A DNA stretch of 20,876 nt from a virus (Duplodnaviria > Heunggongvirae > Uroviricota > Caudoviricetes). Location of the stretch: the IMG/VR virus record IMGVR_UViG_2537562015_000013. One strand, 5' to 3'. Position numbers and translations under genes: made by a program. This document shows, one piece after another, positions 1,610 to 20,876 of this stretch. The notes beneath the pieces are model-generated. The model searched no databases and was not told the origin of the DNA. It saw only the letters and a program-made list of their open reading frames with translations. Numbering within the stretch: the first letter of the stretch is position 1; each line of letters begins with the position of its first letter.

Positions 1610-1805
1610 CAGCTTGCGTAGCCCTGACAGTCTGTTTTGAGCGAACAGTGGACATTTTCAATGGCATTCTTGAGTAGGTTACGCTTAGACCAGAAGTAAG
1701 AGGTGATAGAATTATCAACAATACATAAAACATAGGGGATCCTTATTGATTTATTGATCTTGACCAACTTATGTGATGCAGTATGTCTTTAACTTGTATT
1801 ACTAT

Positions 1806-1829
1806 TATCTTTATCTTTATCTTTATCTT
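1806..1829. repeat. Perfect tandem hexamer repeat (TATCTT)x4 in the upstream region of the cargo gene
   Basis: Four exact copies at 1806-1811, 1812-1817, 1818-1823 and 1824-1829, about 40-65 bp upstream of ATG 1872. Confidence 0.9.
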
Positions 1830-1871
1830 GTTGTTTCTAATAAACTTATCTTATTTCAGAAAGGAGTTTCT

Positions 1872-3572
1872 ATGCATTTAGTCACGAAATCTTATTTCGA
1901 TGCCTTTTGCAAAGCATTCGCTGCGCCCTATGAGGAGACCAAAAATTTTGAGGCGTTTGTGAACTATTGTGCTTTTTCAAAATACTCAGGCGACAAAGTT
2001 GAGGTCAGTGATCTTGTGTATGAAGGCCCGGACCCTGGTATTGATGGAGCATTTTTATTTTTAGACGACAGAGCCATTTTTTCAACTGAAGAACTTCAGG
2101 AGATTTTCCAAAACTCACGTCGCGAGTTTCAAGTTTCATTAGTATTCACGCAAGCTAAGTCATCGGAGAAGTGGAGCAAACAGGAAATAGACTCTTACAT
2201 TGCGTCAATAAGAGATTATCTTTCACCAGCGCCACAACAACCCCACAGTGAATATCTAGCGGACTTTAAAAAAATGTTCAACTTGATATTTGCTAATATC
2301 GGCAGAGTCAAAAATGGCCTTCCAGACTTATACGCATATTTTTTTAGTGCTGCACAAAATACAGAGGCCAGAGAAATAAAAGCTGCATTTGCATCGGGTG
2401 AAAAAAGCTTAAAGTCACTCGGGTTTTCACATGAAACATCCTTCATTATGGCTCACAAAGACATGATTCATGAGCTTTGGCTTGCTGCGGAAGGTCCAAT
2501 AGAAGCTAAACTTCCTACAATAGGCTATGCTCCATTCCCAGCGGCCCCTAATATTAATAATGCCTATGTAGCTACAGTCAAAGCTCGTAGTTTTATTGAT
2601 TCTATACTTAAAGACAAAAATGGAAACCCTCGAAAAAAATTATTCGAAGAAAATGTTAGAGATTTTCTGGGAATTGATGGTGACGTAAATTCAGAAATTG
2701 CAGGAACACTAGATACTGATGGAAAAAAAGCAAGATTTGGTTTAATGAATAATGGAGTGACAATAGTTGCATCAAGCGTGAGGCCTGCAGGGCAAGAAAT
2801 TTTTATACGAGATTTTCAAATTGTTAATGGATGTCAAACGTCTAATGTTCTTATATCAAAAGACATTCAAGTAGATGAATCAGTTAGTTTAATGATTAAA
2901 TTAATTGAAACCGATGAGCCAGCGATCCTTGATGACATTGTACGAGCTACGAATAGACAATCTAAAGTTGAAGATGCACAGTTCATTTCAACGCTAAAAA
3001 AATTAAGGGAATTAGAACATTATTTTAATGCTAAAGGTGCTATTGAAGGAAATAAAATTTATTTTGAGAGAAGAAAGGGGCAGTATAGTTCAGAAAGTAT
3101 AGCTCCAGTACGCATATTTGATATCAGAGAAGTTGCGCGAGCATATGCTGCTATTGTTATGATGAGACCAGATTATTCCAGTCGTTATCCAAATAGGTTA
3201 ACTGGTGACTTACTTAATGAGGTTTTCTCTTCCGATGCCCTCGAGGATGATTATTATATATCTTGCTATTGCTTGTATAGGCTAAAGGCTCTTATCTCAA
3301 ATAAGAGGTTTGATGGGAAGTATTCAAAATTACGCTGGCATATTCTAACTGCTGCGTCAAAATACTGTGGTAATAATTATAAGGCTTGGGGGTTCAAAAA
3401 TAAAAATGAAGCTCTTCATAACTTATTCTCAATGAATGATGGGGAGTGGTTTGAAAAACTTGAGAGTTTAGTAAAAATAGCTATACCAGATCCGGATATT
3501 TCTCGAGACTTACTAAAGTCGCAGCCTTTAACATCAACGATTCTCAAAAGTGTTGATAGCGTACCTAAATAA
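1872..3572 (+). CDS. AT-rich cargo ORF, about 566 aa; putative AIPR-like abortive-infection (phage resistance) protein
   Basis: Long ORF with SD AAGGAG 5 nt before ATG 1872 (the track ORF from 1773 includes translation of the hexamer repeat and is unlikely to be the real start). Composition is clearly more AT-rich than the flanking phage genes. Contains FGLMNNGVTIV...FQIVNGCQTS, which I recall as resembling the conserved core of the AIPR family; this is unverified. Confidence 0.8.
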   Translation: MHLVTKSYFDAFCKAFAAPYEETKNFEAFVNYCAFSKYSGDKVEVSDLVYEGPDPGIDGAFLFLDDRAIFSTEELQEIFQNSRREFQVSLVFTQAKSSEKWSKQEIDSYIASIRDYLSPAPQQPHSEYLADFKKMFNLIFANIGRVKNGLPDLYAYFFSAAQNTEAREIKAAFASGEKSLKSLGFSHETSFIMAHKDMIHELWLAAEGPIEAKLPTIGYAPFPAAPNINNAYVATVKARSFIDSILKDKNGNPRKKLFEENVRDFLGIDGDVNSEIAGTLDTDGKKARFGLMNNGVTIVASSVRPAGQEIFIRDFQIVNGCQTSNVLISKDIQVDESVSLMIKLIETDEPAILDDIVRATNRQSKVEDAQFISTLKKLRELEHYFNAKGAIEGNKIYFERRKGQYSSESIAPVRIFDIREVARAYAAIVMMRPDYSSRYPNRLTGDLLNEVFSSDALEDDYYISCYCLYRLKALISNKRFDGKYSKLRWHILTAASKYCGNNYKAWGFKNKNEALHNLFSMNDGEWFEKLESLVKIAIPDPDISRDLLKSQPLTSTILKSVDSVPK

Positions 3573-4987: not shown

Positions 4988-5514
4988 TTGCGTAACTCCG
5001 ATAATTCGTTAAAGCGTTCCATAAACATCCCGTAGGCATGGCCTGGAGCCAGTGGAATCACGTTGAACATCTCTGTTGCCGGGATACCTTCCAGCACAGG
5101 CCAGAAAGAGCCATCATCAAGCCCGAGATCGCGGCGTTCGGTTGCCAGCATAATGAGATCGGCATATTTCACTGGCGTGCTCATAACAGGAGGTAACCCG
5201 TATTTCTCACGGATTACGGCGTCTATTTTTTCTTCCATCCGTTTATAGTCAGGAAGAAGTCGTTTCAGTGGTGCGGGGATGTCCTGGCAATATGCTTCTG
5301 TTGCATCATGCATTAAAGCTTCAAAAGCAAATTCCTGCGGCACCAGCTGGCTGCAAAGCACCGCATGTTGGGCGACGCTGTAGAAGTGAGAAAGATGACC
5401 GGCAAAGCGGCAGATATTTGAAAGGGAAAACGCGATATCGTTAATAACGATGTCGTCTTTATTTATCTTGTCATAATAAAAATGCTTCCCGGAAAAAGTT
5501 TTAATAAATGACAT
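4978..5514 (-). CDS. HD-domain phosphohydrolase (YfdR-like putative 5'-deoxynucleotidase)
   Basis: H...HD signature (SVAQHAV ... LMHDATEAY). I place the start at the internal Met (MSFIKTF...) because GGAG sits about 8 nt upstream; the track ORF extends to 5577. Confidence 0.7.
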   Translation of the reverse strand: MSFIKTFSGKHFYYDKINKDDIVINDIAFSLSNICRFAGHLSHFYSVAQHAVLCSQLVPQEFAFEALMHDATEAYCQDIPAPLKRLLPDYKRMEEKIDAVIREKYGLPPVMSTPVKYADLIMLATERRDLGLDDGSFWPVLEGIPATEMFNVIPLAPGHAYGMFMERFNELSELRKCA

Positions 5515-5642
5515 TTTGTTCTCCACTTTATATGCGCTGCACCGCGCTGAATTTTGGTTAAAGAAAACCCTCGCCATCAGGCGATTATTGAGTTAATTAC
5601 GTTTCCATAAATGCCCCCGCAGGGGCATTTGCAGTAATGAAA

Positions 5643-6467
5643 TCAGGCGGTGAAAGTACCAATAAAGGTTTCTACTTTGCTGTCTTTGAATTTTTCAACA
5701 AGCAGATCACGAAATTCGTTAGCCATTTCTTCCTGCACTGCTTCCAGCTGAATAATGCGCAGAACCAGTACAGGGCGATCACCAGTGATAATGCTGAGGC
5801 GTAATTTAAACGGACGTTCTTTCAGGCCTTCAAACGGAACGCATTTAAACTCAAATGCTACTGGCATAATGTCTTTGGTTTTCGCTTCGACAGACTCCAT
5901 CAGAGAGCGTTTGCCGCTGAAGTCATTGTCTTCAAAATCAGCGGTCTGGTTTGCTTCAATCGTGATTTTACGGACCGCCGCAGCCGCTTTTGTTGCCTGA
6001 ATGGCGTCACCATTAGCATCAAAGCCCACAAGGTAGTCGGCCCAGTCTTCAATCCATTCTGCCAGTGACTTCTGGGAGTTACGCTCGCCGTTAACAGACA
6101 ACAGGGCAGAGAACGGTGCTGTCTTTTTCAGTTTGAGAGTGGCGGTGTTATCTGCGTGACCTGGTTCATCAATAGTACCCAGGTTAAGCACACTGACGGC
6201 TCGCATATTATCAGCATCGATAAAGCAGCGGGTGCCTTCATCTGCAAGATCTTTAGAATAACGGGTAAAGTCATCGATGCTGGCAGTGGAAAGCGCACCA
6301 CGGAAACGGAAGCGATTTAAATTAAATTTTTCCAGATCATGAATGCGGAAATTCTCAGGCAATGCCACAGCATCGGCACCAATCTTACTGATAATTTCAT
6401 TAACACCCTGAGCAGAAATAAGGGCATGGATTTGATTAATTGCGGTTGTGTCTAAGTTCTGAGACAT
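5643..6467 (-). CDS. YfdQ-family (DUF2303-like) prophage protein
   Basis: 274-aa ORF with an SD (GAGG) upstream; sequence resembles the YfdQ protein of CPS-53-type prophages as I remember it. Confidence 0.65.
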
Positions 6468-6532
6468 AATAAGTCCTCACTATATAAAGATATTCAGTGA
6501 TGAGATAAATAATCAGTTTATTAAAAACGATA

Positions 6533-6707
6533 TTAACGACCTGCTGCGCGGAGTTTTCCGTCAGGTTCACCGGCAAGAGTCAGTAATTGTCCCTGGTCTT
6601 CCTGCAGAATAGTCAGGCGACCACCGCGATTGACATACATCGGCGTTTCGGTGGTGTCTTCTTCGGAAATTTTCCCGCGGTTAGTCGGGCGAACATATGA
6701 GAGTTTG
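6533..6707 (-). pseudogene. 3' fragment of a leftward early gene truncated by IS1
   Basis: The reading frame runs straight into the IS1 left end at 6708 with no native start codon (the track ORF begins on a TTG inside IS1); it lies in the operon directly upstream of the YfdQ-like gene. Confidence 0.45.
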
Positions 6708-6762
6708 GGTGATGCTGCCAACTTACTGATTTAGTGTATGATGGTGTTTTTGAGGTGCTCCA

Positions 6763-7038
6763 GTGGCTTCTGTTTCTATCAGCTGTCCCTCCTGTTCAGC
6801 TACTGACGGGGTGGTGCGTAACGGCAAAAGCACCGCCGGACATCAGCGCTATCTCTGCTCTCACTGCCGTAAAACATGGCAACTGCAGTTCACTTACACC
6901 GCTTCTCAACCCGGTACGCACCAGAAAATCATTGATATGGCCATGAATGGCGTTGGATGCCGGGCAACTGCCCGCATTATGGGCGTTGGCCTCAACACGG
7001 TTTTACGTCACTTAAAAAACTCAGGCCGCAGTCGGTAA
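6763..7038 (+). CDS. insA: IS1 InsA protein
   Basis: 91-aa product [43 protein letters not shown]...; the A6C slippery motif (TTAAAAAAC, about 7012-7020) lies near its 3' end. Confidence 0.93.
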
Positions 7039-7460
7039 CCTCGCGCATACAACCGGGCAGTGATGTGATTGTCTGCGCGGAAATGGACGAACAGTGGGGC
7101 TACGTCGGTGCTAAATCACGTCAGCGCTGGCTGTTTTACGCGTATGACAGGATACGGAGGACAGTTGTGGCGCACGTTTTCGGTGAACGCACTCTGGCCA
7201 CACTGGCGCGTCTTCTGAGCCTGCTGTCGGCCTTTGAGGTCGTGGTATGGATGACGGATGGCTGGCCGCTGTATGAATCCCGCCTGAAGGGAAAGCTGCA
7301 CGTAATCAGCAAGCGTTACACTCAGCGCATTGAGCGACATAACCTGAATCTGAGACAACATCTGGCAAGGCTGGGACGGAAGTCACTGTCGTTCTCAAAA
7401 TCGGTGGAGCTGCATGACAAGGTCATCGGGCATTATCTGAACATAAAACACTATCAGTAA
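6957..7460 (+). CDS. insB: IS1 InsB reading frame (made as the InsAB' transposase by -1 frameshift)
   Basis: 167-aa frame [27 protein letters not shown]...HYLNIKHYQ overlapping the insA 3' end. Confidence 0.9.
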
Positions 7461-7801
7461 GTTGGAGTCACTACCCCGCCGCCGCAGTCCTTCATTTCTT
7501 ACCTGCTGACAAGTGGGTAACGCCACGCATGATGACGAGAACTACCGGAGTAAGCGAAGCCCGGTGCCAGTTAATACTGACTCAGTTAGTTCTGGCGGGT
7601 CTGGCGAAGGATAACGGCGGGTACGGGAATAAATTCAGACGCTGCCAGTAATGGCGGTTTCCTGCTGTGAAAATGGGCGGCTGGTGGGTGTTGGTAGCAC
7701 CTGCCAGCCATTCGCTCATGCTTACTGGTCACAAGCGAACCACGGCCCACTGCTTTAGCGCAAAAGCAGAGTGAGCCTACCAGAGTTACGCTTACTGATC
7801 C

Positions 7802-8854
7802 ATGAAAAATACTGTAAAAATAAACAGTGTTGATTTAATCAACGCTGATTGCCTGCATTTTATTCAGTCCCTGCCTGATGATTCCATTGACCTGATTGTT
7901 ACCGATCCGCCGTACTTCAAGGTGAAACCCAACGGCTGGGACAATCAGTGGAAAGGGGACGAAGATTACCTTAAGTGGCTGGACCACTGTCTGGCCCAGT
8001 TCTGGCGGGTGTTAAAACCTGCCGGAAGCCTTTACCTGTTCTGTGGGCATCGCCTGGCATCTGATATTGAGATCATGATGCGTGAACGTTTCAACGTGCT
8101 TAACCATATCATCTGGGCGAAGCCGTCCGGACGTTGGAATGGGTGTAATAAAGAAAGTCTGCGCGCATATTTTCCTGCCACAGAGCGCGTTCTGTTTGCT
8201 GAACATTACCAGGGGCCATATCGCGGCAAAAGTGACGGCTATGCGGCAAAAGAAAGGGAACTCAAACAGCACATAATGGCACCGCTGATATCGTATTTCA
8301 GGGATGCTCGTGCCGAACTGGGTATAACGGCAAAACAAATTGCCGAAGCCACAGGTAAGAAAAATATGGTTTCCCACTGGTTTGGTGCCAGTCAGTGGCA
8401 GTTGCCGAATGAGGCTGACTATCGGAAGTTACAGGCACTGTTTTCCCGTATAGCGGCAGAGAAGTTTCAGGAACAACAACTGGAACAACCACACCACCAG
8501 CTGGTGGCATCTTATGATTCACTGAATCGCAAATATTCTGAATTGCTGGATGAGTTTAAATCTCTCCGGCGTTATTTCTCCGTATCAGTCTCCGTGCCTT
8601 ATACCGATGTCTGGATGCATAAACCCGTTCAGTTCTACCCGGGTAAACATCCGTGTGAGAAACCGGCGGATATGCTCAGGCAAATAATCAATGCCAGTAG
8701 TCGACCTGGTGATCTGGTTGCTGATTTTTTTATGGGATCCGGTTCCACAATAAAAGCAGCAATGGCGCTGGGGCGTCGGGCCTTAGGTGTTGAGCTTGAG
8801 TCAGAGCGGTTTAACCAGACAGTGAAAGAGATAAACGAGCTGGTGGGGAAATAA
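7802..8854 (+). CDS. DNA methyltransferase, beta-class N6-adenine or N4-cytosine type (orphan)
   Basis: 350 aa; catalytic motif IV DPPY (LIVTDPPYF) near the N-terminus and AdoMet motif I FFMGSGST near the C-terminus; no restriction partner visible; no clear SD before the ATG. Confidence 0.85.
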   Translation: MKNTVKINSVDLINADCLHFIQSLPDDSIDLIVTDPPYFKVKPNGWDNQWKGDEDYLKWLDHCLAQFWRVLKPAGSLYLFCGHRLASDIEIMMRERFNVLNHIIWAKPSGRWNGCNKESLRAYFPATERVLFAEHYQGPYRGKSDGYAAKERELKQHIMAPLISYFRDARAELGITAKQIAEATGKKNMVSHWFGASQWQLPNEADYRKLQALFSRIAAEKFQEQQLEQPHHQLVASYDSLNRKYSELLDEFKSLRRYFSVSVSVPYTDVWMHKPVQFYPGKHPCEKPADMLRQIINASSRPGDLVADFFMGSGSTIKAAMALGRRALGVELESERFNQTVKEINELVGK

Positions 8855-8860
8855 TCTGGT

Positions 8861-8885
8861 GGCCACGTCAGGTGGCCTTTTTATT
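8861..8885 (+). terminator. Candidate intrinsic terminator between the methyltransferase and the holin
   Basis: GGCCAC-GTCAG-GTGGCC hairpin followed by TTTTTATTT, starting 7 bp after the methyltransferase stop; positionally like lambda tR' upstream of S. Confidence 0.45.
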
Positions 8886-8930
8886 TCCAACACAGCACCC
8901 GCAAATAATCGCGAGGTGAGAGATGACGAA

Positions 8931-9266
8931 ATGCCTCATAACCCAAATACCTGGCCGGACTGGCTGGAGTTGTTCCAGAGCTGGTGGCGTGGAGATACGC
9001 CGCTGGGCGCAGTGATTATGTCGATTGTTATGGCTGGTTTGCGCATCGCCTATTTTGGTGGTGGTGGTGGCTGGAAGCGAAAAACGCTCGAGATTTTGCT
9101 ATGTGGCGCTCTGACGTTGACCTTTGCATCCGCGCTTGAGTATGTCGGATGGCCTAAATCGCTTTCTGTTGCCATTGGTGGTGGGGTGGGGCTGATCGGG
9201 GTCGATGCTATTCGTGGGGCTGCAATGCGAGTAATCGGTAACAAGTTCGGTGGCTCTAAGGAGTAA
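8931..9266 (+). CDS. Putative holin (three predicted transmembrane segments, charged C-terminal tail)
   Basis: Sits immediately upstream of the endolysin; hydrophobic stretches LGAVIMSIVMAGLRIAYF, LEILLCGALTLTFASALEYVGW and LSVAIGGGVGLIGVDAI. Start placed at ATG 8931 with GAGG upstream; the track start at 8859 is a GTG inside the terminator hairpin with no SD. Confidence 0.65.
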   Translation: MPHNPNTWPDWLELFQSWWRGDTPLGAVIMSIVMAGLRIAYFGGGGGWKRKTLEILLCGALTLTFASALEYVGWPKSLSVAIGGGVGLIGVDAIRGAAMRVIGNKFGGSKE

Positions 9267-9269
9267 TTT

Positions 9270-9746
9270 ATGCAGGTACTAAATTCCCAGCGTAAAGCTT
9301 TCCTCGATATGTTGGCGTGGTCAGAAGGAACGGATAACGGGCGACAGCCAACCCGCAATCACGGCTACGACGTTATTGTAGGTGGTGAGTTATTCACGGA
9401 TTACTCCGATCACCCTCGCAAACTTGTCACGCTAAACCCCAAACTCAAATCAACAGCAGCCGGACGTTACCAGCTTCTTTCCCGTTGGTGGGATGCCTAT
9501 CGTAAGCAGCTTGGCCTGAAAGACTTCTCTCCAAAAAGCCAGGACGCTGTTGCACTGCAGCAGATTAAGGAGCGTGGCGCTTTACCGATGATTGATCGCG
9601 GTGACATCCGTCAGGCAATCGACCGTTGCAGCAATATCTGGGCTTCACTGCCGGGCGCTGGTTATGGCCAGTTCGAGCATAAGGCTGACAGCCTGATTGC
9701 AAAATTCAAAGAGGCTGGCGGAACGGTCAGAGAGATTGAGGTATGA
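9270..9746 (+). CDS. R: Endolysin, lambda R-type lytic transglycosylase
   Basis: 158 aa, nearly identical to lambda R as I recall it ([22 protein letters not shown]...AGGTVREI). Confidence 0.93.
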
Positions 9747-10210
9747 GCAGAGTCACCGCGATTATTTATGCTCTGGTTATCTGCATCATCGTCTGCCTGT
9801 CGTGGGCGGTCAATCATTACCGTGATAACGCCATCGCCTACAAAGAACAGCGTGATAAAAAAGTCAGTGAGCTGAAGCAGGCGACCGCCACCATTACTGA
9901 CATGCAGATGCGTCAGCGTGATGTTGCTGCGCTCGATGCAAAATACACGAAGGAGTTAGCTGATGCGAAAGCTGAAAATGATGCTCTTCGGCGCAAGCTT
10001 GATAATGGTGGTCGGGTGCTCGTCAAAGGAAAATGCTCTGTGCCATCCTCAGCCGAAACCTCCAGCGCCTCCGGCATGGGCAATGATGCCACCGTCGAAC
10101 TCTCTCCAGTTGCTGGACGAAACGTTCTCGGTATCCGGGACGGAATCATCAGAGACCAGACAGCACTGAGAACGCTTCAGGAATATATCAGGACGCAATG
10201 CCTTCGATGA
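9743..10210 (+). CDS. Rz: Rz inner-membrane spanin
   Basis: 155 aa; N-terminal TM segment and coiled-coil region resembling lambda Rz ([30 protein letters not shown]); overlaps the R stop. Confidence 0.88.
9963..10169 (+). CDS. Rz1: Rz1 outer-membrane lipoprotein spanin, embedded in Rz in the +1 frame
   Basis: 68-aa ORF wholly inside Rz; signal peptide with lipobox ([19 protein letters not shown]) and a Pro-rich mature region ([14 protein letters not shown]); SD AAGGAG 7 nt upstream. Confidence 0.75.
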
Positions 10211-10419
10211 TAGCGATAATTTTACTCATCATCCTTCACATTTGGCTCTGTAGACAGGGTGGTGATCACTTCTGGAGTGAATCCAGATTAAATATCTCAT
10301 TGCTGATGCTTGATATTGAGCATCTTGCGCGCGGTAAGGGGCTGCGTTGAGATAAGAGCCAGTCATTACAAATACCAGGATTTAGCCTCGTATTCGCGGG
10401 GCTTTTTATTGTCATTACA

Positions 10420-10446
10420 AAAGCCACTCCCTACAGAGTGGCTTTG
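10420..10446. terminator. Candidate bidirectional terminator hairpin downstream of the lysis cassette
   Basis: AAAGCCACTC-CCTACA-GAGTGGCTTT: 10-bp stem flanked by an A-run and a T-run; a second GC-rich segment plus T-run (CGCGGGGCTTTTTATT) lies about 25 bp upstream. Confidence 0.4.
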
Positions 10447-10829
10447 ATAATGGTTTATACCCTACACGGGATAACTTAACTGATATCCCTTTTAACGGAT
10501 AAAGGTATTCAAGCCTGACACATCATGCGCTGTATCGTCGCCGTATTCCCGTATTAACAGAGACCGTAGCCCGACGGGGAACTCCTTCTGCGAGAGTGTG
10601 CGGGAATAATCAAAAACGATGCACACCGGGTTTTTACCGCGTTTATGGTTCGCGGGTTTGTCCCTCATGCTCGCCAGTCCTGTGCGGGGGTGGAAGAAAC
10701 AGGACACTTACACAGATTCTTGTGGGCACGATGCTATGCCTTTCTGGATTATCCCGATGCCATTCATGCAAGGCGTTGTATCAGACGTTCGTCAGAGCTG
10801 TCAGGCTGACGGGTCCTCCCGGTGGGGTG

Positions 10830-10980
10830 GCCTGCCACGGGGCGGGAGCGTCGCGGAAAAAGGCTAGTTTTTGAAATTTTATTCGTCATCACCACCACTG
10901 TAATTGATTGATATTACAGTGATTTTATTTTTATGGTGTCGATTCTGATTGTTTTTTGTTCATCACCAACACCGTTTGCC
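10830..10980. other. Candidate cos site (cosN-like core and cosB-like region) for lambda-type packaging
   Basis: CACGGGGCGGGAGCGTCGCGG followed by an AT-rich TAGTTTTTGAAATTTTAT closely parallels the lambda cos sequence as I recall it (CGGGGCGGCGACCTCGCGG ... TATTTATGAAAATTTT); it lies about 185 bp before the terminase small-subunit start, as cosN does relative to Nu1. Two TCATCACCA(C/A)CAC copies follow at about 10885 and 10959. Confidence 0.5.
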
Positions 10981-11025
10981 TAAAGTTGTTCGCAAGATGC
11001 ATGTTTAAAACATTCTGGAGCGGGT

Positions 11026-11520
11026 ATGGATCGAGAGTTAAAAAATCTGACGCTGAATATCAGTCAACTGGCGGCATTGTCAGGTGTACATCGCCAGACT
11101 GCTGCGGCAAGGCTGCAAAATCTACCCGTTGCAGGGGGGCATGAAAGCAACCTCAAGCTTTATCGGGTGGTTGATATTGTGTCGGCATTTCTGGCATTAC
11201 CACCGCCGGTTGCAGAAGGCGAAATGGACGCGCATGAGCGCAAAGCCTGGTATCAGTCTGAACGTGAGCGTCTTAAGTTCGAACAGGAAACGGCACAACT
11301 CATTCCGGCCAGTGATGTCAGACGGGAGTTTGCCATCTGGGCAAAAGCGGTCGTGCAGGTGCTGGAGACATTACCGGATATTCTTGAACGTGACTGCGGT
11401 CTGCAGCCTGCCGCTGTGAGCCGTGTTCAGTCCATTATTGATGATCTTCGCGATCAGATAGCCCTGCGGGTGACTGAAGCAGGTGCGGATGATGAGGAGG
11501 AATTACAGCAGGAGGAGTAA
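11026..11520 (+). CDS. Terminase small subunit (Nu1-like DNA-recognition subunit)
   Basis: 164 aa; N-terminal HTH-like segment (LNISQLAALSGVHRQTAAARL), coiled-coil middle, acidic tail; stop overlaps the terminase large-subunit start; follows the cos-like region. Confidence 0.7.
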   Translation: MDRELKNLTLNISQLAALSGVHRQTAAARLQNLPVAGGHESNLKLYRVVDIVSAFLALPPPVAEGEMDAHERKAWYQSERERLKFEQETAQLIPASDVRREFAIWAKAVVQVLETLPDILERDCGLQPAAVSRVQSIIDDLRDQIALRVTEAGADDEEELQQEE

Positions 11521-13622
11521 TGCTGAATCAGGAAACCGCAAAGGCAGCACGAACCGATTCAGGTTATATCCTTCGCGCACCGAGACGAATGCGGGTTGCT
11601 GATGCCGTTGCTCAGTATATGCGGGTGCCCATGGGGGCAGGGAACTCAGTCCCGTGGGATCCGCTGGTGGCACCGTATGTTATTGAGCCTATGAACTGCC
11701 TGGCCTCGCGTGAATACGACGCAGTGATATTTGTTGGCCCGGCACGAACCGGCAAGACTATCGGCCTGATTGACGGCTGGGTGATTTACAACGTGATTTG
11801 CGATCCTGCTGATATGCTGATTATTCAGATGACGGAGGAAAAAGCCCGCGAACACTCCAAAAAACGACTCGCCAGAACGTTTCGCGTCAGCCCGGAAGTG
11901 GTCAGTCGCCTGAGTCCGAACAAAAATGACAACAACGTTTATGACAGAACATTCCTTGCTGGTAACTACCTGAAAATCGGCTGGCCGTCAGTCAATATCA
12001 TGTCCTCATCAGATTATAAATGCGTCGCGCTGACGGATTATGATCGTTTTCCGGAAGATATTGATGGCGAGGGGGATGCTTTCTCTCTTGCCTCAAAACG
12101 TACCACAACATTTATGTCCAGTGGTATGACGCTGGTGGAGAGTTCCCCCGGCAGGGATGTGAAGGATGTGAAATGGCGACGGACTTCACCGCATGAGGCT
12201 CCACCAACCACGGGGATACTGTCGCTCTATAACCGTGGCGATCGCCGTCGCTGGTACTGGCCCTGTCCACACTGTGGTGAGTATTTTCAGCCCTGCGGCG
12301 ATGTGGTTGCTGGTTTCCGTGATATTGCCGATCCCGTTCTGGCAAGTGAGGCGGCTTATATTCAGTGTCCTTCCTGTTCAGGACGGATTATGCCTGAACA
12401 AAAACGTGAGCTGAACGGACGTGGGGTCTGGTTGCGGGATGGTGAATCCATCAATGCGGATGGCAGTCGTTATGGTGATCCCCGACGCTCACGTATTGCG
12501 TCATTCTGGATGGAGGGGCCGGCAGCTGCTTACCAGACACTCTCGCAACTCGTTTACAAACTGCTTACTGCAGAACAGGAATACGAAACAACCGGAAGTG
12601 AAGAAACACTCAAGACGGTTATCAATACCGACTGGGGATTACCTTATCTTCCCCGCGCCAGCATGGAGCAACGAAAAAGTGAACTGCTTGAGCAGCGGGC
12701 AGAGCCAGTTCCTTCCCGCAGTGTGCCGGATGGCGTTAATTTTCTTGTGGCGACAGTGGATGTGCAGGCGGGACGTCATCGCCGTTTTGTGGTTCAGGTA
12801 ACGGGCTATGGCAGCCGTGGCGAACGCTGGATTATTGATCGTTACAACATCACGCAGTCATTGCGCGGTGACTGCGACGGGGAGAGCCAGCGAATTGATC
12901 CGGCCAGCTACCCGGAAGACTGGGATGTCCTGCTGACGGATGTTTTTCATAAAAGCTGGCCGCTGGCCTCCGATCCTTCTCAACAAATGCGACTGATGGC
13001 AATGGCGGTGGACTCCGGCGGTGAAGACGGGGTCACTGATAATGCCTATAAATTCTGGCGTCGTTGCCGTCGTGATGGCCTTGGTAAACGTATTTACCTG
13101 TTTAAGGGTGACAGCATCCGGCGCGCAAAACTGATCAGCCGTACATTCCCTGATAACACCGGACGAACGGGCCGCCGGGCGCAGGCCGCAGGTGATGTGC
13201 CGCTCTGGCTTCTTCAGACGGATGCCCTGAAAGACCGGGTGAATAACGCGTTATGGCGTGACTCGCCAGGTCCCGGCTATGTGCATTTCCCTGACTGGCT
13301 GGGGAGCTGGTTTTACGACGAACTGACGTATGAAGAGCGGAGCAGTGACGGGAAATGGAGTAAGCCGGGTCGCGGTGCCAACGAAGCTTTTGACCTGATG
13401 GTGTATGCCGAGGCTCTGGTCATTCTGCATGGATACGAAAAGATCCGCTGGCCGGATGCACCGGAGTGGGCGAGCCGGGAAACCTGGCTGGAGTGTGTCC
13501 CGGACAGTACCGAACCGTCACCCTCACCGGAACCGGTATCCACGCCTGTTAAAAAACAAAAACGGAAGAAAACAGTAACTGACGATGTTAACCCCTGGCT
13601 GACTTCCGGAGGATGGTTATGA
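11520..13622 (+). CDS. Terminase large subunit (lambda gpA family)
   Basis: 700 aa; Walker A GPARTGKT; CPHCG metal-binding motif as in lambda gpA (WYWPCPHCGEYFQ); strong SD GGAGGAG. Confidence 0.93.
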   Translation: MLNQETAKAARTDSGYILRAPRRMRVADAVAQYMRVPMGAGNSVPWDPLVAPYVIEPMNCLASREYDAVIFVGPARTGKTIGLIDGWVIYNVICDPADMLIIQMTEEKAREHSKKRLARTFRVSPEVVSRLSPNKNDNNVYDRTFLAGNYLKIGWPSVNIMSSSDYKCVALTDYDRFPEDIDGEGDAFSLASKRTTTFMSSGMTLVESSPGRDVKDVKWRRTSPHEAPPTTGILSLYNRGDRRRWYWPCPHCGEYFQPCGDVVAGFRDIADPVLASEAAYIQCPSCSGRIMPEQKRELNGRGVWLRDGESINADGSRYGDPRRSRIASFWMEGPAAAYQTLSQLVYKLLTAEQEYETTGSEETLKTVINTDWGLPYLPRASMEQRKSELLEQRAEPVPSRSVPDGVNFLVATVDVQAGRHRRFVVQVTGYGSRGERWIIDRYNITQSLRGDCDGESQRIDPASYPEDWDVLLTDVFHKSWPLASDPSQQMRLMAMAVDSGGEDGVTDNAYKFWRRCRRDGLGKRIYLFKGDSIRRAKLISRTFPDNTGRTGRRAQAAGDVPLWLLQTDALKDRVNNALWRDSPGPGYVHFPDWLGSWFYDELTYEERSSDGKWSKPGRGANEAFDLMVYAEALVILHGYEKIRWPDAPEWASRETWLECVPDSTEPSPSPEPVSTPVKKQKRKKTVTDDVNPWLTSGGWL

Positions 13623-13831
13623 ACCAGAATGATATCGAAGCCATGATTCAGCGTTATACGGAAGCTGAAATGGCGGTGCTGGACGGAAAATCCGTCACCT
13701 TTAATGGTCAGCAGATGACCATGGAAAACTTATCTGAGATCCGGCAGGGACGGCAGGAGTGGGAGCGCCGCCTTGCGGCTCTGATTACACGACGACGGGG
13801 GCATCCCGGGTACCGGCTGGCGAGGTTCTGA
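13619..13831 (+). CDS. gpW-like head-tail joining protein
   Basis: About 70 aa; C-terminal RRRGHPGYRLARF resembles the lambda gpW C-terminus; coupled to both neighbours by ATGA overlaps. Start placed at the second ATG (13619) for SD spacing. Confidence 0.7.
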   Translation: MNQNDIEAMIQRYTEAEMAVLDGKSVTFNGQQMTMENLSEIRQGRQEWERRLAALITRRRGHPGYRLARF

Positions 13832-15339
13832 TGGCAATTCTTGATGATGTGATTGGCGTTTTTTCACCAGGATGGAAAGCGGCAAGGCTGCGTTCCCGGG
13901 CGGTGATCCAGGCTTATGAGGCCGTAAAAACGACGCGGACACACAAAGCCCGGCGGGAAAACCGAACTGCCGACCAGTTAAGCCAGTACGGGGCCGTGTC
14001 GTTACGTGAGCAGGCCCGTTACCTTGATAACAACCACGATCTGGTCATTGGTGTATTTGACAAGCTGGAAGAACGGGTGGTGGGGAAAAACGGGATTATT
14101 GTCGAGCCACATCCGGTATTACGCAATGGGGCCATTGCCCGTGATCTGGCTGCGGAGATTCGCACCCGATGGAGTGAATGGTCTGTCAGCCCGGAAGTCA
14201 CCGGGCAGTTTACCCGTCCGATGCTGGAACGTCTGATGCTGCGTACCTGGCTGCGCGATGGTGAGGTGTTTGCCCAGATGGTTTCCGGGCGCATAAACAG
14301 CCTGACGCCTTCTGCCGGTGTTCATTTCTGGCTGGAGGCGCTCGAGCCGGACTTTATTCCCATGACCAGTGATGAGAGCAACAGGCTGAATCAGGGCGTG
14401 TTTGTTGATGACTGGGGGCGTCCCGAAAAATATCTGGTGTATAAAAGCCGTCCCGTATCCGGACGGCAGATGGAAACCAAAGAAGTGGATGCAGAGCGAA
14501 TGCTGCATCTTAAATTTGTTCGCCGTCTGCACCAGATGCGCGGGACGTCTTTATTGTCCGGTGTGCTGATCCGCCTCAGTGCTCTGAAAGAGTATGAAGA
14601 TTCTGAGCTGACTGCAGCAAGGATCGCCGCTGCTCTGGGGATGTACATCCGGAAAGGCGACGGGCAGAGCTATGAAGCGGATGGTAATGGCAGCAAGGAT
14701 AAGGAACGCGAGCTTACCATTCAGCCAGGCATTATTTACGATGATCTGAAACCCGGCGAAGAAATCGGAATGGTGAAGTCGGATCGCCCCAATCCTAACC
14801 TTGAAACTTTTCGTAATGGTCAGTTGCGTGCCGTGGCGGCGGGCAGTCGTCTGAGTTTTTCCAGTACAGCGCGCAACTATAACGGCACTTACAGCGCCCA
14901 GCGTCAGGAGCTGGTTGAATCCACTGATGGCTACCTGATCCTGCAGGACTGGTTTATTGGTGCCGTCACCCGTCCGATGTATCGTGCCTGGCTGAAACAG
15001 GCTGTGGCATCCGGTGTTATCAGGCTACCCCGCGATCTTGACCGTTCTTCACTGTATACCGCGGTGTATTCCGGACCGGTGATGCCGTGGATTGACCCTG
15101 TTAAGGAGGCTGAGGCCTGGAAAATCCAGATTCGTGGTGGAGCGGCGACAGAATCAGACTGGGTACGTGCTGGTGGTCGTAATCCGGATGATGTCAAACG
15201 TCGGCGCAAGGCCGAAATTGATGAAAACCGCAAACTGGATCTGGTATTTGATACCGATCCGGCCAGTGATAAAGGAGGCAGCAGTGCCGCAACGAAACGA
15301 CAGGAGCCGCAGCACACCGACGACCAGTCCGAAGAATAA
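13831..15339 (+). CDS. Portal protein (lambda gpB-like)
   Basis: About 503 aa from ATG 13831 (SD GAGGT); the size and the A-W-B-C gene order match lambda head genes; the track ORF from 13759 overlaps gpW in the same frame. Confidence 0.85.
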
Positions 15340-15352
15340 TTCCTGGTTCAGG

Positions 15353-17215
15353 ATGCAGGCTGGTCACCAGAGTGACGCGGATATTTATATTTATGACGAG
15401 ATTGGTTTCTGGGGTGTTACAGCGAAGCAGTTTATCAGTGATCTGAATGCACTGGGCGATATCACCCACATTAATCTCCATATTAATTCACCGGGTGGCG
15501 ATGTCTTTGAAGGCATCGCCATTTTTAATGCGCTGAAAACACATGGTGCGTCCATTACCGTTTATGTCGACGGTGTGGCGGCGTCAATGGCGTCGGTCAT
15601 TGCGATGGTGGGAAACCCGGTCATTATGCCGGAAAACACCTTCATGATGATTCATAAACCATTTGGCTTTACGGGCGGTGATGCGGAGGACATGCGCACC
15701 TATGCCGACCTGCTCGATAAAGTTGAGGCGGTTCTGTTACCCGCTTATGCACAGAAAACCGGGAAAACCACCGATGAAATTGCTGCCATGCTGGCGGATG
15801 AGACCTGGATGTCCGGTGCCGAATGTCTGGCACATGGATTTGCTGATCAGGTAACGCCAGCCGTTAAGGCAATGGCATGTATTCAGTCAAAACGTACAGA
15901 GGAATTTAAAAAGATGCCGGAATCCATTCGAAACATGATTACTCCGCCACGCAACAGTGCTCCACGCGTACAGGATGATGAACCTGCAGCCTCCCGGACG
16001 CCAGTGCAGGCAGCAGCACCCGTGGTGGATGAAAACAGTATCCGTGCGCAGGTAGCCGCCAGTATCAATATCAAACCGGGCCATGATTATTACTTTTATA
16101 TCCGCAGTGTGAACACCGTTGGCAAATCGGCATTCGTGGAGGCTGTTGGTCAGCCGAGTGATGATGCATCCGGCTATCTGGATTTTTTCAAAGGAGAGAT
16201 AGGGAAAACCCATCTGGCTCAGGAGTTGTGGACGCAGATTGATAACGGTCAGCTTGCGCCTGACCTGGCTGAAATCAGGATGTCCATTACGGATGTCAGC
16301 AATGAAATCACGCAGACCGTCAATAAGAAACTGGAAGACCAGAGTGCAGCGATCCAGCAGATACAGAAGGTTCAGGTTGATACAAATAATAACCTGAACA
16401 GCATGTGGGCTGTGAAGCTGCAGCAGATGCAGGACGGACGCCTTTATATCGCGGGTATTGGTGCCGGTATTGAGAACACCCCTGACGGCATGCAGAGTCA
16501 GGTGCTGCTGGCGGCAGACAGGATTGCGATGATTAATCCTGCGAATGGCAACACAAAGCCGATGTTTGTTGGTCAGGGCGATCAGATATTCATGAACGAA
16601 GTGTTCCTGAAATACCTGACGGCTCCCACCATTACCAGCGGCGGTAATCCTCCGGCATTTTCCCTGACACCGGACGGGCGGCTGACGGCGAAAAATGCAG
16701 ATATCAGCGGTAACGTGAATGCGAACTCCGGGACGCTCAACAATGTCACGATTAATCAGAACTGCCGGATTCTGGGAAAACTGTCAGCCAACCAGATTGA
16801 AGGCGATATTGTTAAAACGGTGGGCAAAGCTTTCCCCCGTGACTCCCGTGCACCGGAACGGTGGCCATCAGGGACCATTACCGTCAGGGTTTATGACGAT
16901 CAGCCGTTTGACCGGCAAATTGTTATTCCAGCGGTGGCTTTCAGCGGTGCCAGACATGAACGGGAGAATAGCGATACTTATTCGTCATGCCGCCTGATAG
17001 TGAAGAAAAACGGGGCTGAAATTTATAACCGAACGGCTCTGGATAATACTCTGATTTACACGGGTGTTATTGATATGCCTGCAGGCAGTGGCGTAATGAC
17101 ACTGGAGTTTTCGGTATCAGCATGGTGGGTAAATGGCTGGTATCCCACAGCAAGTATCAGCGATTTGCTGGTTGTGGTGATGAAGAAAGCCACTGCAGGC
17201 ATCATGATTAGCTGA
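15353..17215 (+). CDS. Chimeric ORF: prohead protease (gpC/ClpP-like, clan SK) N-terminal domain fused in frame to the C-terminal part of a J-like tail tip host-specificity protein; probable deletion remnant
   Basis: N-terminus carries protease motifs ([22 protein letters not shown]). From about 16066 the sequence ([27 protein letters not shown] ... [39 protein letters not shown] ... MPAGSG) parallels the C-terminal region of lambda J as I recall it. Confidence 0.75.
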
Positions 17216-17233
17216 ATTTTATAACCCAGATAC

Positions 17234-17260
17234 GGGCGCCAGAAATGGCGCCTTTTTTAT
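17234..17260 (+). terminator. Intrinsic terminator after the J-derived ORF
   Basis: GGCGCC-AGAAAT-GGCGCC hairpin followed by TTTTTTATTT. Confidence 0.7.
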
Positions 17261-17273
17261 TTGTGGAGTGAAT

Positions 17274-19619
17274 ATGGCAGTACAGATTTCAGGTGTGCTG
17301 AAAGATGGTGCGGGAAAACCAATACAGAACTGCACTATTCAACTGAAGGCAAAGCGTAACAGCACCACGGTACTGGTGAACACGGTGGCCTCTGAAAATC
17401 CGGATGAAGCCGGGCGTTACAGCATGGATGTTGAGCATGGCCAGTACAGCGTCACCCTGCTGGTTGAAGGTTTTCCGCCTTCACATGCCGGAACCATTAC
17501 CGTCTATGAAGGTTCCAGACCAGGTACGCTGAATGATTTTCTCGGTGCCATGACGGAAGATGATGTCATGCCGGAGGCATTGCGTCGTTTTGAGGCAATG
17601 GTGGAAGAAGCGGCACGCAACGCCGAAGCCGCCTCTCAGAGCGCAGCGGCGGCAAAGAAATCCGAAACTGCAGCGGCATCATCGAAGAACGCGGCGAAAA
17701 CCTCAGAAACGAATGCAGCTAACAGCGCACAGGCGGCAGCGTCCTCGCAGACTGCATCGGCAAACTCCGCGACAGCAGCCAAAAAATCAGAAACCAACGC
17801 GAAAAACAGCGAGACAGCCGCAAAGACGAGCGAAACCAACGCAAAGTCCAGCCAGACGGCAGCGAAAACCAGCGAAACGAATGCCAAAGCCAGTGAAACT
17901 GCGGCGAAAAATAGCCAGAATGCAGCAGCCGAAAGCGAGAGCGCGGCAGCCGGTTCTGCGACTGCAGCAGCTGGATCAGCAACTGCTGCGGCTAACAGCC
18001 AGAAAGCAGCGAAGACGAGCGAAACTAACGCAAAGTCCAGCCAGACGGCAGCGAAGACCAGCGAAACAAATGCCAAAGCCAGCGAAACTGCGGCGAAAAG
18101 CAGTCAGGATGCAGCAGCCGAAAGCGAGAGCGCGGCAGCTGGTTCTGCAAGTGCGGCGGCTGCTTCTGCCACTGCATCAGCAAACAGTCAAAAAGCGGCA
18201 AAAACCAGTGAAACCAATGCAAAGACAAGCGAGACTGCAGCGGCGAACTCGGCGCAAGCATCGGCAGCAAGCCAGACAGCAGCTAAAGCAAGTGAGGATG
18301 CAGCCAGAGAGTATGCAAGCCAGGCAGCAGAGCCGTATAAATATGTCTTACAGCCACTGCCTGATGTGTGGATACCGTTTAACGATTCACTGGATATGCT
18401 TGCTGGCTTTTCGCCTGGTTATAAGCAAATAACCGTAGGTGATGATGTTATTAAAATGCCATCCGATAAGGTTGTTAGCTTCAAACGCGCATCAGGTGCA
18501 ACATACATTAATAAATCAGGTGTATTAACCGTTGCTGAAGTTGACGAACCGCGATTTGAACGAGAAGGTTTGCTGATTGAAGGACAGAGAACAAACTATT
18601 TCAGAAATTCAAATACACCAGAAGCATGGAATAACACGGGTAGTGTGTCTGTTGAGTCGTTCGACAGTGATAAGGGGTTTAACTATGGAAGGATAACTGT
18701 TATTAATGAAAATCCGACAGCACAAGGATATCAGGCAATTGCTGTAAACACGAATGATGCTTACACCTGCCCGGCAGGTTCTTATACGACGATATCGTGT
18801 CTGACGAAAAGTGATAATTCCCGGTGTCGTGCAAGGTTCGGAAAAATGTCTGATAATGGTGCGTTTGTTTTTCATTCAGATGCAGTTCTGGATCCTGTTA
18901 CGGGAAATGTTGTTCATGGAAATAATGTGACGGTGACGGCAGAAAGAGTCGGTGAATGGTGGTTGTTTACCGCCACTCTTTTTGCAGATGCGGAAATGAT
19001 AATCAGCTCAAGATTTGAAATCCTGGCGATGCCTGGAATCAGTATTATCCCCAATGGCTCTACGTTAGATATTGCGATGCCTCAGGCGGAGATTGGGTCG
19101 TACAGGACGTCATTTATCATTACTGAAGGGGCTCCTGGCACTCGCTCCAGCGACATGGTGACAATACCTGTAAGAAACAATATTCACCGATTACCATTCA
19201 GTGCTCTTGTTGAAGTTAATAAAAACTGGGATATCCCTCCCAGCAAATCACCATTAATCTTTAATGTTAAAGATTATCAGGAAAATGGTCTGTTCACGCA
19301 TGGATTCCGTGGTAATAATTTCTCTGATGCCGGTTCTCCTTTTATTTCTATGGGAGGGTGTAATAAATATGTGGCAACAACCCAGAGGAAAATCATTTCA
19401 GGCTTCCGTTGTGGCGCTGATGGAGATGTTCAGGCCGTATGTAATGGTGAATTATCTGTTGCGGCAAAAACAACATGGACTTCAATTGTTCCACGGGCAG
19501 TATTGCGAATTGGAGGGCAGGGCACTAATGGGGAGTATCATCTTTTTGGTCATATCCGTAATCTGCGTATCTGGCATAAAGAATTAACTGATGCGCAAAT
19601 GGGGGAGAGTATTAAATGA
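17274..19619 (+). CDS. stf: Side tail fiber protein (Stf-like) with a repetitive Ala/Ser/Thr-rich shaft and a LamG-like C-terminal domain
   Basis: N-terminus MAVQISGVLKDGAGKPIQNCTIQLKAKRNSTT... closely matches lambda Stf as I recall it; the central region is built from AAKTSETNAK-type repeats; the C-terminus ends GEYHLFGHIRNLRIWHKELTDAQM, a pattern typical of LamG/ConA-like jelly-roll domains. Start placed at ATG 17274 (GGAG upstream). Confidence 0.88.
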   Translation: MAVQISGVLKDGAGKPIQNCTIQLKAKRNSTTVLVNTVASENPDEAGRYSMDVEHGQYSVTLLVEGFPPSHAGTITVYEGSRPGTLNDFLGAMTEDDVMPEALRRFEAMVEEAARNAEAASQSAAAAKKSETAAASSKNAAKTSETNAANSAQAAASSQTASANSATAAKKSETNAKNSETAAKTSETNAKSSQTAAKTSETNAKASETAAKNSQNAAAESESAAAGSATAAAGSATAAANSQKAAKTSETNAKSSQTAAKTSETNAKASETAAKSSQDAAAESESAAAGSASAAAASATASANSQKAAKTSETNAKTSETAAANSAQASAASQTAAKASEDAAREYASQAAEPYKYVLQPLPDVWIPFNDSLDMLAGFSPGYKQITVGDDVIKMPSDKVVSFKRASGATYINKSGVLTVAEVDEPRFEREGLLIEGQRTNYFRNSNTPEAWNNTGSVSVESFDSDKGFNYGRITVINENPTAQGYQAIAVNTNDAYTCPAGSYTTISCLTKSDNSRCRARFGKMSDNGAFVFHSDAVLDPVTGNVVHGNNVTVTAERVGEWWLFTATLFADAEMIISSRFEILAMPGISIIPNGSTLDIAMPQAEIGSYRTSFIITEGAPGTRSSDMVTIPVRNNIHRLPFSALVEVNKNWDIPPSKSPLIFNVKDYQENGLFTHGFRGNNFSDAGSPFISMGGCNKYVATTQRKIISGFRCGADGDVQAVCNGELSVAAKTTWTSIVPRAVLRIGGQGTNGEYHLFGHIRNLRIWHKELTDAQMGESIK
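17823..18200 (+). repeat. Two tandem copies of a 189-bp (63-aa) unit inside stf, within a larger degenerate repeat tract (about 17630-18300)
   Basis: 17823-18011 and 18012-18200 align with only scattered substitutions (KTSETNAKSSQTAAKTSETNAKASETAAK.SQ.AAAESESAAAGSA...). The overlapping track ORFs in other frames and strands here are repeat artefacts. Confidence 0.85.
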
Positions 19620-19897
19620 AAGATTTAACACTCAAATTTGCAGACAGGGCCGACTTTTCGGCCTTTATGGAGAGTATTGGCTATTATGATGACGAGTCGA
19701 TGCAGGATGATATTCTTATTGACGTGATAGGTAACGTGTACAAAGAAACCGGAGAACTGACTGAAGATGGCGAACCGGTATGTGTTAAGGAAGACGGATA
19801 TTTTGTAAACGTGCGCATCATTAATGATGTAAAAAAATCGTCAATATTCGATAAATACGCGGTTGTTGTTGAGCATCAACTTCGTGGCTGGATGTGA
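19616..19897 (+). CDS. Hypothetical acidic protein translationally coupled to stf (possible fiber chaperone or assembly factor)
   Basis: 93-aa ORF; its ATG overlaps the stf stop (ATGA); SD GGGGGAGAG; no motif I recognise; occupies the position of tfa but does not resemble Tfa. Confidence 0.5.
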   Translation: MKDLTLKFADRADFSAFMESIGYYDDESMQDDILIDVIGNVYKETGELTEDGEPVCVKEDGYFVNVRIINDVKKSSIFDKYAVVVEHQLRGWM

Positions 19898-19906
19898 GGG
19901 AGACAA

Positions 19907-20611
19907 ATGGCTACATCGACAGTAATTCCAGGAGATATCACCACGCTAAAGGGAGATGTCAGTAAAACTAAGGAAGATATTTCCTCAATTAACGGAAAAG
20001 TATCAACGCTTCAGACTGATATGACCAGTGCAAAGCAGGATATCAGCACCAGATACACAAAAACTGAAGTTGATAATAAGCTGAAAAACAAACTGGAAGT
20101 GAACGATCTGGAAAGCGGTCGTTATGGTGGAGATTTTTACCCGTTGACTGGCCGTGAAGCGTTTTATATGTGGGGATTGGGCACGACTACAGCGGCGGCA
20201 AACCTTTATCTTAATCCTGACCCTGCAATTTCGTCTGTACTGCGGTCAACATCGTCTATTCGCTATAAACATTCAGTAGAGACGATAGATTCAGAGCACG
20301 CCGATCTCATTTTCAGGATGCGCCCTGTGTGGTACAGGTCGCAATGCGAAAATGACAGGCGTGACTGGGGATTCTACGGATTGATTGCCGAGGAAGTAGG
20401 AGAAATTGCCCCTCAGTTTGTACACTGGCGACCAGCTAACGAAGATGATGCTCCTGAAGCTATTTCCAGCAATGGCCTTGTTGCCGAAGGTGTAATGTAC
20501 GAACGTCTGGTTGTTCCACTGATTCACCATATCCAGAAGCTGACTGAAAGAGTTGATGAACTTGAGTCAGAATTAAAGTTGTTATCCGTTTCCCGAAGCG
20601 ATATCGGATAA
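19907..20611 (+). CDS. Short tail-fiber-like protein with a C-terminal intramolecular-chaperone (peptidase S74-like) domain
   Basis: 234 aa; N-terminal heptad-like segment (TLKGDVSKTKEDISSINGKVSTLQTDMTSAKQDIS); C-terminal SSIRYKHS...PVWY...GLIAEEVGEIAPQFV...YERLVVPLIHHIQKLTERVDELESEL matches the Ser-x4-Lys and GxIAxEV pattern of auto-cleaving fiber chaperone domains; SD GAGGGA. Confidence 0.6.
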   Translation: MATSTVIPGDITTLKGDVSKTKEDISSINGKVSTLQTDMTSAKQDISTRYTKTEVDNKLKNKLEVNDLESGRYGGDFYPLTGREAFYMWGLGTTTAAANLYLNPDPAISSVLRSTSSIRYKHSVETIDSEHADLIFRMRPVWYRSQCENDRRDWGFYGLIAEEVGEIAPQFVHWRPANEDDAPEAISSNGLVAEGVMYERLVVPLIHHIQKLTERVDELESELKLLSVSRSDIG

Positions 20612-20621
20612 AGGAGGAGTA

Positions 20622-20876
20622 ATGGATATAACACCTTTCCTTCATGCGCTTTGTGCTGTGGCTGCGCAGCTACTGATTGGTCTTTTTACCGGGAACTGGG
20701 CTTACGGGGCGATAGCCGGTTGTACGTTCTTCATTGCGCGTGAACACACCCAGGCAGAATATCGCTGGATTGAAATGTTCGGGCATGGCAAGCGAATGAA
20801 TATGCCGTGGTGGGGCGGTTTTGATCCGCGCGCGTGGGATGTGGCAAGCCTGATGGATTTTGCTGTGCCGGTGGTG
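20622..20876 (+). CDS. Hypothetical membrane protein, 5' part only (runs off the window)
   Basis: Strong SD AAGGAGG before ATG 20622; hydrophobic N-terminus (FLHALCAVAAQLLIGLFTGNWAYGAIAGCTFFIA) followed by REH..EY and a W/G-rich segment; no track entry because no stop lies within the window. Confidence 0.5.
   Translation, partial: MDITPFLHALCAVAAQLLIGLFTGNWAYGAIAGCTFFIAREHTQAEYRWIEMFGHGKRMNMPWWGGFDPRAWDVASLMDFAVPVV

Follow-up and report, generated by a model that had tools for sequence, protein, structure and literature searches.

The window, as we call the whole 20,876-nucleotide stretch of DNA analysed here, contains an open reading frame in which a ClpP-like prohead protease domain is joined in frame to the C-terminal, receptor-binding part of a lambda-type tail tip protein J. 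The protease-J fusion is real and lies far beyond chance. Very probably, the chimeric ORF is the scar of a deletion that took place within the prophage, i.e., an ordinary relic of prophage decay and no new kind of protein. The features on which this reading is based are listed in Table 1.

Table 1. Coordinates of the features of the chimeric ORF and its surroundings in the window (amino acids of the domains counted from ATG 15353; the slash marks the breakpoint)
Feature	Start	End	Strand	Details
IS1 element	6763	7460	+	PGAP; adjoins truncated yfdP
Lambda-family portal gene	13759	15339	+	Phage_portal_2, E 6e-82; PGAP; immediately upstream of the chimera
Chimeric ORF	15284	17215	+	643 aa from GTG 15284, or 620 aa from ATG 15353
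Left parent piece	15353	16054	+	First 234 aa of a 652-aa ClpP-like prohead protease/scaffold/major capsid fusion gene
Complete ClpP-like protease domain	15419	15856	+	aa 23-168; Pfam CLP_protease, NCBIfam NF045542
Putative deletion junction	16053	16054	+	'TA' common to both parents; GCGCAGGTA/GCCGCC; three-way alignments
Right parent piece	16055	17215	+	Last 386 codons plus stop of a 1159-aa lambda-type J (residues 774-1159)
Truncated second FNIII/Ig-like domain of J	16055	16189	+	Ig_J_second, aa 235-279, last 45 of ~105 residues
Central tail fibre segment of J, complete	16349	16735	+	Phage_Tail_Tip PF09327, aa 333-461, profile 1-138 of 139, E 4e-32
C-terminal receptor-binding Ig-like domain, complete	16820	17212	+	Ig_GpJ_C PF12421, aa 490-620
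Intrinsic-terminator-like hairpin plus T run	17234	17253	+	8-bp stem, 6 GC pairs, TTTTTTATTT tail; consensus scan, pattern match only
Side tail fibre gene stf	17268	19619	+	Pfam phage_tail_N, E 6e-67; full length vs intact prophages

The reading frame and its start

The frame between 15353 and 17215 is open, as an earlier note on this DNA had described it, and encodes 620 aa followed by a stop codon. The longest ORF in this frame begins at TTG 15092, and the PGAP annotation of the E. coli E1648 genome places the start at GTG 15284, giving a product of 643 aa (WP_148935927.1). Since an AAGGAGG Shine-Dalgarno box is located 5 nt upstream of GTG 15284 and none is found before ATG 15353, the GTG is likelier to be the start of the chimera; this refines the start proposed previously and leaves the finding unaffected. 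An ORF starting at GTG 15284 shares 56 nt with the portal gene. In the phage records 569R4 and cdtI, the protease/capsid gene begins at the counterpart of ATG 15353, and PGAP uses the counterpart of GTG 15284, so that start annotation across this gene family may be inconsistent. RefSeq names WP_148935927.1 "head maturation protease, ClpP-related" because the chimera passes the domain-level protease model NF045542, and the automatic annotation has attached no pseudogene flag to it.

The protease side

The DNA of the left piece is 99.2-99.7% identical to that of mEp460-, cdtI- and 569R4-type phages, and the match stops at the junction. Pfam CLP_protease aligns with this piece over profile positions 29-179 of 182 (E 8e-36), and the NF045542/PF00574 domain test gives 215.2 bits, against a cutoff of 120, over positions 1-165 of 165. 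The prohead-protease motifs to which attention had been drawn are indeed present, namely INSPGG (aa 44-49, nt 15482-15499) and GVAASMAS (aa 74-81, nt 15572-15595). The candidate catalytic residues are Ser78 (in GVAASMAS), His101 (in MIHKP) and Asp165 (in GFADQV). Serine, histidine and aspartate at these positions constitute the catalytic triad of ClpP. In the alignment with the solved ClpP structures 1y7o and 6hwm, AASM, IHQP/IHKP and the aspartate are conserved. The protease domain of the chimera is whole and equipped with its candidate catalytic residues.

The full-length model NF045540 gives a different picture: the chimera scores 320.7 bits, below the cutoff of 475, and covers profile positions 2-229 of 652, and the intact homologue from the L007 locus described below scores 984.4 bits over positions 2-651. 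The parent protein is a single chain of 652 aa, in which Pfam recognizes CLP_protease at aa 23-168 and Phage_capsid_4 at aa 354-649; the latter, a C-terminal HK97-fold capsid domain, is absent from the chimera. Hence, the left parent is not lambda C, as the earlier note had assumed, and it is not followed by separate scaffold, decoration and capsid genes; according to Pfam and NF045540, it is a single protease-scaffold-major capsid fusion gene of the Gifsy-2/mEp460/cdtI type, and the deletion would therefore start inside the capsid gene itself. A fused protease and coat gene is referred to the Gifsy-2 type in the passage of PMC12315714 that cites Effantin et al. (2010). With the tripartite gene of this type (NF045540; mEp460, cdtI, Tritos, Ayreon) the chimera shares its first 234 residues, at 99% DNA identity and including the whole ClpP-like domain, but it lacks parent residues 235-652, which comprise the remaining scaffold/linker and the whole capsid domain. 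The left remnant thus keeps the protease domain and about 65 linker residues only.

The J side

The right piece displays 95-98.5% DNA identity to annotated gpJ genes, beginning at the junction. The J-like C-terminus, previously put at about 380 residues, is borne out by Pfam and by the solved structure of lambda J, and its size can now be set at 386 residues. Lambda J (8iyk) was aligned at residues 773-835 and 838-1131 (E 1e-121), the central fibre segment matching from residue 838 onward. The receptor-binding domain PF12421 is covered over positions 1-135 of 135 (E 4e-37). On the other hand, the full-length lambda_TipJ model NF049904 gives 632.6 bits against a cutoff of 1950, with profile positions 771-1163 of 1163 aligned. 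The chimera lacks the N-terminal Pfam domains Phage-tail_3, FNIII-A_GpJ and Ig_J, all of which Pfam finds in an intact J, and its Ig_J_second is represented by profile positions 60-104 of 105 as compared with 2-104 in the intact protein.

Lambda J is laid out as hub domains, FNIII-1, FNIII-2, a helical shaft, a central straight fibre and the receptor-binding domain (PMC11101478). When the chimera is set against this protein (NF049904; 8iyk, 8xcj), its last 386 residues correspond to about residues 773-1132, from the end of FNIII-2 through the receptor-binding domain; the hub domains, FNIII-1 and the first half of FNIII-2 (profile 1-770) are lacking. The J fragment begins at the equivalent of residue 774, cutting FNIII-2 in half and leaving no hub domain. 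Because the hub domains are all missing, the fragment would not be able to enter the tail tip, and we infer that the chimera cannot be built into a tail. Of the neighbours expected for J, i.e., the tape-measure gene, M, L, K and I, no such tail gene is found in the window or in E1648, and the portal gene lies directly upstream.

The best match among solved structures (E 4e-144) is the gpJ of A8 (9wca), an engineered lambda J chimera that carries the C-terminus of a natural E. coli prophage and uses OmpC (PMC11338833). A8 gpJ is full-length and tail-competent, whereas the chimera described here is a fragment. Counted from 'NVTI' onward, the receptor-binding part has 60.5% identity with A8 gpJ and 43.3% with lambda J, and an identity of 60% is too low to transfer receptor specificity. 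By analogy with A8, an OmpC-type receptor for the J fragment is a reasonable guess.

The junction

The region 15092-17215 was compared by megablast with phage records and with complete E. coli genomes. Two families of matches abut at query positions 962/963, corresponding to 16053/16054 of the window: the protease-side matches (mEp460, cdtI, Tritos, 569R4 and others) cover query 1-963 with up to 99.7% identity, and the J-side matches cover query 962-2124 with up to 98.5% identity. The alignment with parental sequences that had been proposed for finding the exact junction and any microhomology was thus carried out, and the breakpoint, expected between about 15870 and 16065, falls inside this bracket and can be placed at the level of the base. 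In the three-way alignments the window reads GCGCAGGTA/GCCGCC, the protease-side parents GCGCAGGTA/CTGGCA and the J-side parents TACTGGATA/GCCGCC. The overlap between the parents at the breakpoint amounts to 2 bp (TA) only. Since the last base of this TA closes codon 234, the two frames match exactly. A longer microhomology, TACTGG, occurs near the breakpoints in both parents and was considered as the site of joining; it was rejected, for it would give GCGCAGGTACTGGATAGCC, a product 7 nt longer, out of frame and absent from the window. The pattern at the breakpoint points to illegitimate joining at the level of microhomology rather than to homologous recombination.

The missing segment and its intact relatives

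An intact and collinear module was found in E. coli ampC_0069 (locus L007), at a chromosomal site different from that of the window's prophage. Its genes are arranged in the order DUF1441, terminase, W-like, portal, protease/major capsid fusion, decoration, head-tail and tail genes, tape measure, M/L/K/I homologues, gpJ and stf, followed by the same small downstream genes as in the window. Positions 10647-16053 of the window correspond to L007 1732-7134 (97.6% identity) and positions 16053-20876 to L007 19354-24177 (98.2% identity), so that 12,220 bp are missing from the window relative to L007. In addition, a full-length sibling prophage (locus L016) occupies the same yjjG/prfC site in E. coli Ecol_224; it shares the integrase and the AIPR gene, its TerS, TerL and W proteins are identical, and the gap relative to it is again about 12.2 kb. 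The earlier proposal of a large internal deletion that left an open chimeric frame is therefore well supported by the collinearity with L007, the 12,220 bp missing, the 2-bp TA and the rarity of the junction (see below).

The following course of events would account for these observations. A lambdoid prophage with yjjG and prfC as its flanking genes would have lost about 12.2 kb of its morphogenesis operon in one illegitimate recombination event at the 2-bp TA, with the left breakpoint after codon 234 of the protease-scaffold-major capsid gene and the right one before codon 774 of J. With this event would have gone the part of the fusion gene that encodes scaffold and capsid, the genes for decoration, head completion, tail tube, chaperone, tape measure and tip, and two thirds of J from its N-terminus. 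The frames would have matched by chance, giving an ORF of 620 or 643 aa that runs from the protease domain and its linker residues through half of an FNIII/Ig domain and the central fibre to the receptor-binding domain.

Identity to the Ecol_224 sibling is about 99% on the protease side and 93% on the J side, and the lom/stf region differs. The J side being only 93% identical, the immediate ancestor must have been a different mosaic; neither the Ecol_224 sibling nor L007, with about 98% on both sides, is the exact intact parent that we sought. This step in identity across the junction is what would be expected if two lambdoid elements had undergone illegitimate recombination, for example the resident prophage with a second one or with an infecting phage, and partners would have been plentiful, as E. 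coli genomes contain a median of 3 places matching the query, most of them J homologues. However, lambdoid mosaicism alone accounts for the step, the intact L007 keeps an identity of about 98% to the left and right of the junction and is collinear throughout, down to the J-stf junction without lom, and a 2-bp microhomology gives no preference for an intermolecular event. We therefore regard an origin from two elements, whose product would still be a non-functional scar, as unlikely; a single intramolecular deletion is more parsimonious.

Neighbouring genes and other decay in the prophage

The stf gene downstream of the chimera, which the earlier note had called intact, is full length relative to intact prophages: its PGAP CDS has 2346 nt, as in L007, and its protein (WP_000290529.1) is identical in E1620. 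It contains an internal direct repeat (17805-18115 vs 17994-18304, offset 189 bp, ~80% identical). Unlike in lambda, cdtI, HCM-25C-3 and Ecol_224, no lom is found between J and stf (17216-17267); given that the intact L007 has the same arrangement, this represents a natural variant and no further deletion.

A second loss, of about 10 kb, is evident from the comparison with the Ecol_224 sibling, in which positions 5626 and 7476 of the window correspond to L016 25626 and 35548. The segment lost here, at 5627-7475 of the window, carries the repressor, replication, Nin-type and Q genes in the sibling, and no Q antiterminator or repressor is annotated in the prophage by PGAP (E1648). The loss of the immunity, replication and Q region is IS1-associated, and it lends support to the view, already expressed in the earlier note, that the prophage is a cryptic remnant. 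The holin, endolysin and Rz lysis genes are retained. An AIPR-family (abortive-infection-type) gene is located at 1773-3572, directly after the integrase; just past the right end of the window, E1648 has a pair formed by a reverse transcriptase and a SLATT gene, and the Ecol_224 sibling has a TIR-domain anti-phage reverse transcriptase instead at that position. Both ends of the prophage thus carry variable defence cargo.

Other decayed cryptic lambdoid prophages have likewise suffered large losses in the morphogenesis operon and kept the genes of the tail-fibre end. In E1620 (L006 12902-14645), a terminase fragment abuts a tape-measure fragment; the prophage has a full J and an stf whose protein is identical to that of the window. 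In E. coli N169 and three sister strains (L002 12193-13891), a different prophage, near paoD, has independently lost the region from the same protease/capsid gene into J: the match to the capsid gene extends to about codon 367, and about 115 bp of unrelated sequence and the last ~530 bp of J follow. This junction is messier and has no fused frame, and both pieces are flagged as pseudogenes by PGAP. In the window, by contrast, the broken genes are in frame and form one long ORF annotated as an intact protease. Deletion scars of this sort are common in E. coli prophages, and approximately one in three is in frame by chance.

Distribution and age of the fusion

Intact prophages with this architecture, which the earlier note had named as the finding that would speak against its explanation, did not come to light: the junction is absent from 50,697 phage records (0 covering at least 80% of the query) and is present in 3 of 5,426 complete E. 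coli genomes (E1648, E1654 and E1739), all without capsid or tail genes. In a public collection, the exact 643-aa protein is the sole member of its 90% cluster and is found on about 12 contigs. In all eight draft places shown, the neighbouring genes are the same as far as the contigs reach, with no capsid or tail gene; IS1 is also present on the three draft contigs that reach that far, two more break at the IS1 edge, and the contigs that are long enough have the order IS1, methyltransferase, lysis genes, terminase, portal, chimera, stf. Positions 5284-20876 of the window are identical to the end of contig AQFJ01000039.1.

Over 13.7 kb, no more than 9 SNPs separate the copies. The only differences inside the ORF are at three clustered synonymous sites, and the encoded protein is identical in all. 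At these sites (16477, 16489 and 16516, within 40 bp) the window and the identical contig L008 differ from all eight other copies of the chimera; the cluster resembles a short patch brought in by gene conversion from a further J copy of the same genome. Both the near identity of the copies and the fact that TerS, TerL and W do not differ from the proteins of the intact sibling indicate that the deletion event is recent, and with a recent event selection is not required to account for the open frame. Likewise, because the same decayed context surrounds all copies with flanking sequence, the junction would reflect one recent event inherited in one lineage. With an identical protein and at most three synonymous differences, there is too little divergence for a test of selection to have statistical power.

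Expression and possible function

Terminator-like hairpins are found on the + strand upstream of the chimera at 8861-8877 and 10384-10403 (pattern matches), and a further one directly after the J stop codon (Table 1). In a promoter scan, promoter-like sites were no commoner than in shuffled sequence. As the region that holds Q in the sibling is gone and terminator-like hairpins lie upstream, the chimera is probably poorly transcribed, with weak expression at best. The earlier suggestion that the chimera could still be expressed stands insofar as some expression is possible; such expression is unlikely to matter, considering in addition that the J fragment is tail-incompetent. We infer that the chimera has no selected function, there being no capsid left to mature. 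A capsid-forming satellite (cf-PICI-like) or a tailocin was also considered and rejected, since there is neither a capsid domain nor a tail tube gene.

Some points do weigh against a mere scar: the protease, fibre and receptor-binding domains are whole, and the frame stays open for 386 codons past the junction. The latter is weak evidence either way, as about one deletion in three would give such a frame by chance. A folded product is conceivable, because the slightly longer lambda J fragment starting at residue 713 (gpJ713) is soluble and binds LamB in vitro (PMC11101478). It could thus be imagined that the chimera is produced and co-opted: as a cytoplasmic receptor-binding protein tethered to the protease, it would be set free when the retained holin, endolysin and Rz genes lyse the cell and would block the receptor on sister cells, or else the 3′ end of J together with stf would serve as a recombination reservoir by which incoming lambdoid phages switch host range. 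The retention of the lysis genes and of stf is compatible with this, as are the intact domains, the ability of C-terminal J fragments to fold and bind the receptor (PMC11101478) and the clustered synonymous differences at 16477-16516, which suggest that the J remnant exchanges sequence with other J copies. We nevertheless consider co-option highly improbable: besides the obstacles to transcription described above, the junction bisects an Ig-like domain, the fusion occurs in one near-clonal lineage without sequence divergence, so that nothing shows selection, and two other defective prophages have different deletions in the same cluster, of which the one in N169 leaves no fused frame, as expected from decay. 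The more specific idea that the in-frame chimera, made at a low level or upon lysis, acts, as a domesticated fragment, either as a soluble receptor-binding decoy that shields kin cells against phages with the same outer-membrane receptor or as a protease brought to that receptor is equally improbable. Finally, repeats in prophages are a frequent cause of breaks and wrong joins in short-read assemblies, and the window itself seems to form the end of a draft contig. The chance that the junction is an assembly artefact joining two prophage fragments is nevertheless negligible, given that the identical junction occurs in three chromosome-level assemblies and that no fewer than eight draft assemblies or read sets, independent of one another and produced by different projects, contain it too.

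Significance

Were co-option true, the chimera would be a domesticated prophage fragment and no scar. As a deletion scar, by far the more probable reading, it is of small scientific weight: a cleanly mapped case of prophage decay, in which what appears to be a microhomology-mediated 12-kb deletion and an IS1-associated loss are combined in the same element. It also exposes a pitfall of annotation, in that RefSeq names the product as an intact protease and domain-based pipelines will list it among the J-type receptor-binding proteins as well; such chimeras can inflate the number of "novel domain architectures" and the counts of tail-fibre genes in surveys of prophages. As for the phages themselves, the 3′ end of J and the stf gene kept by this prophage are still available as recombination substrates for related phages.
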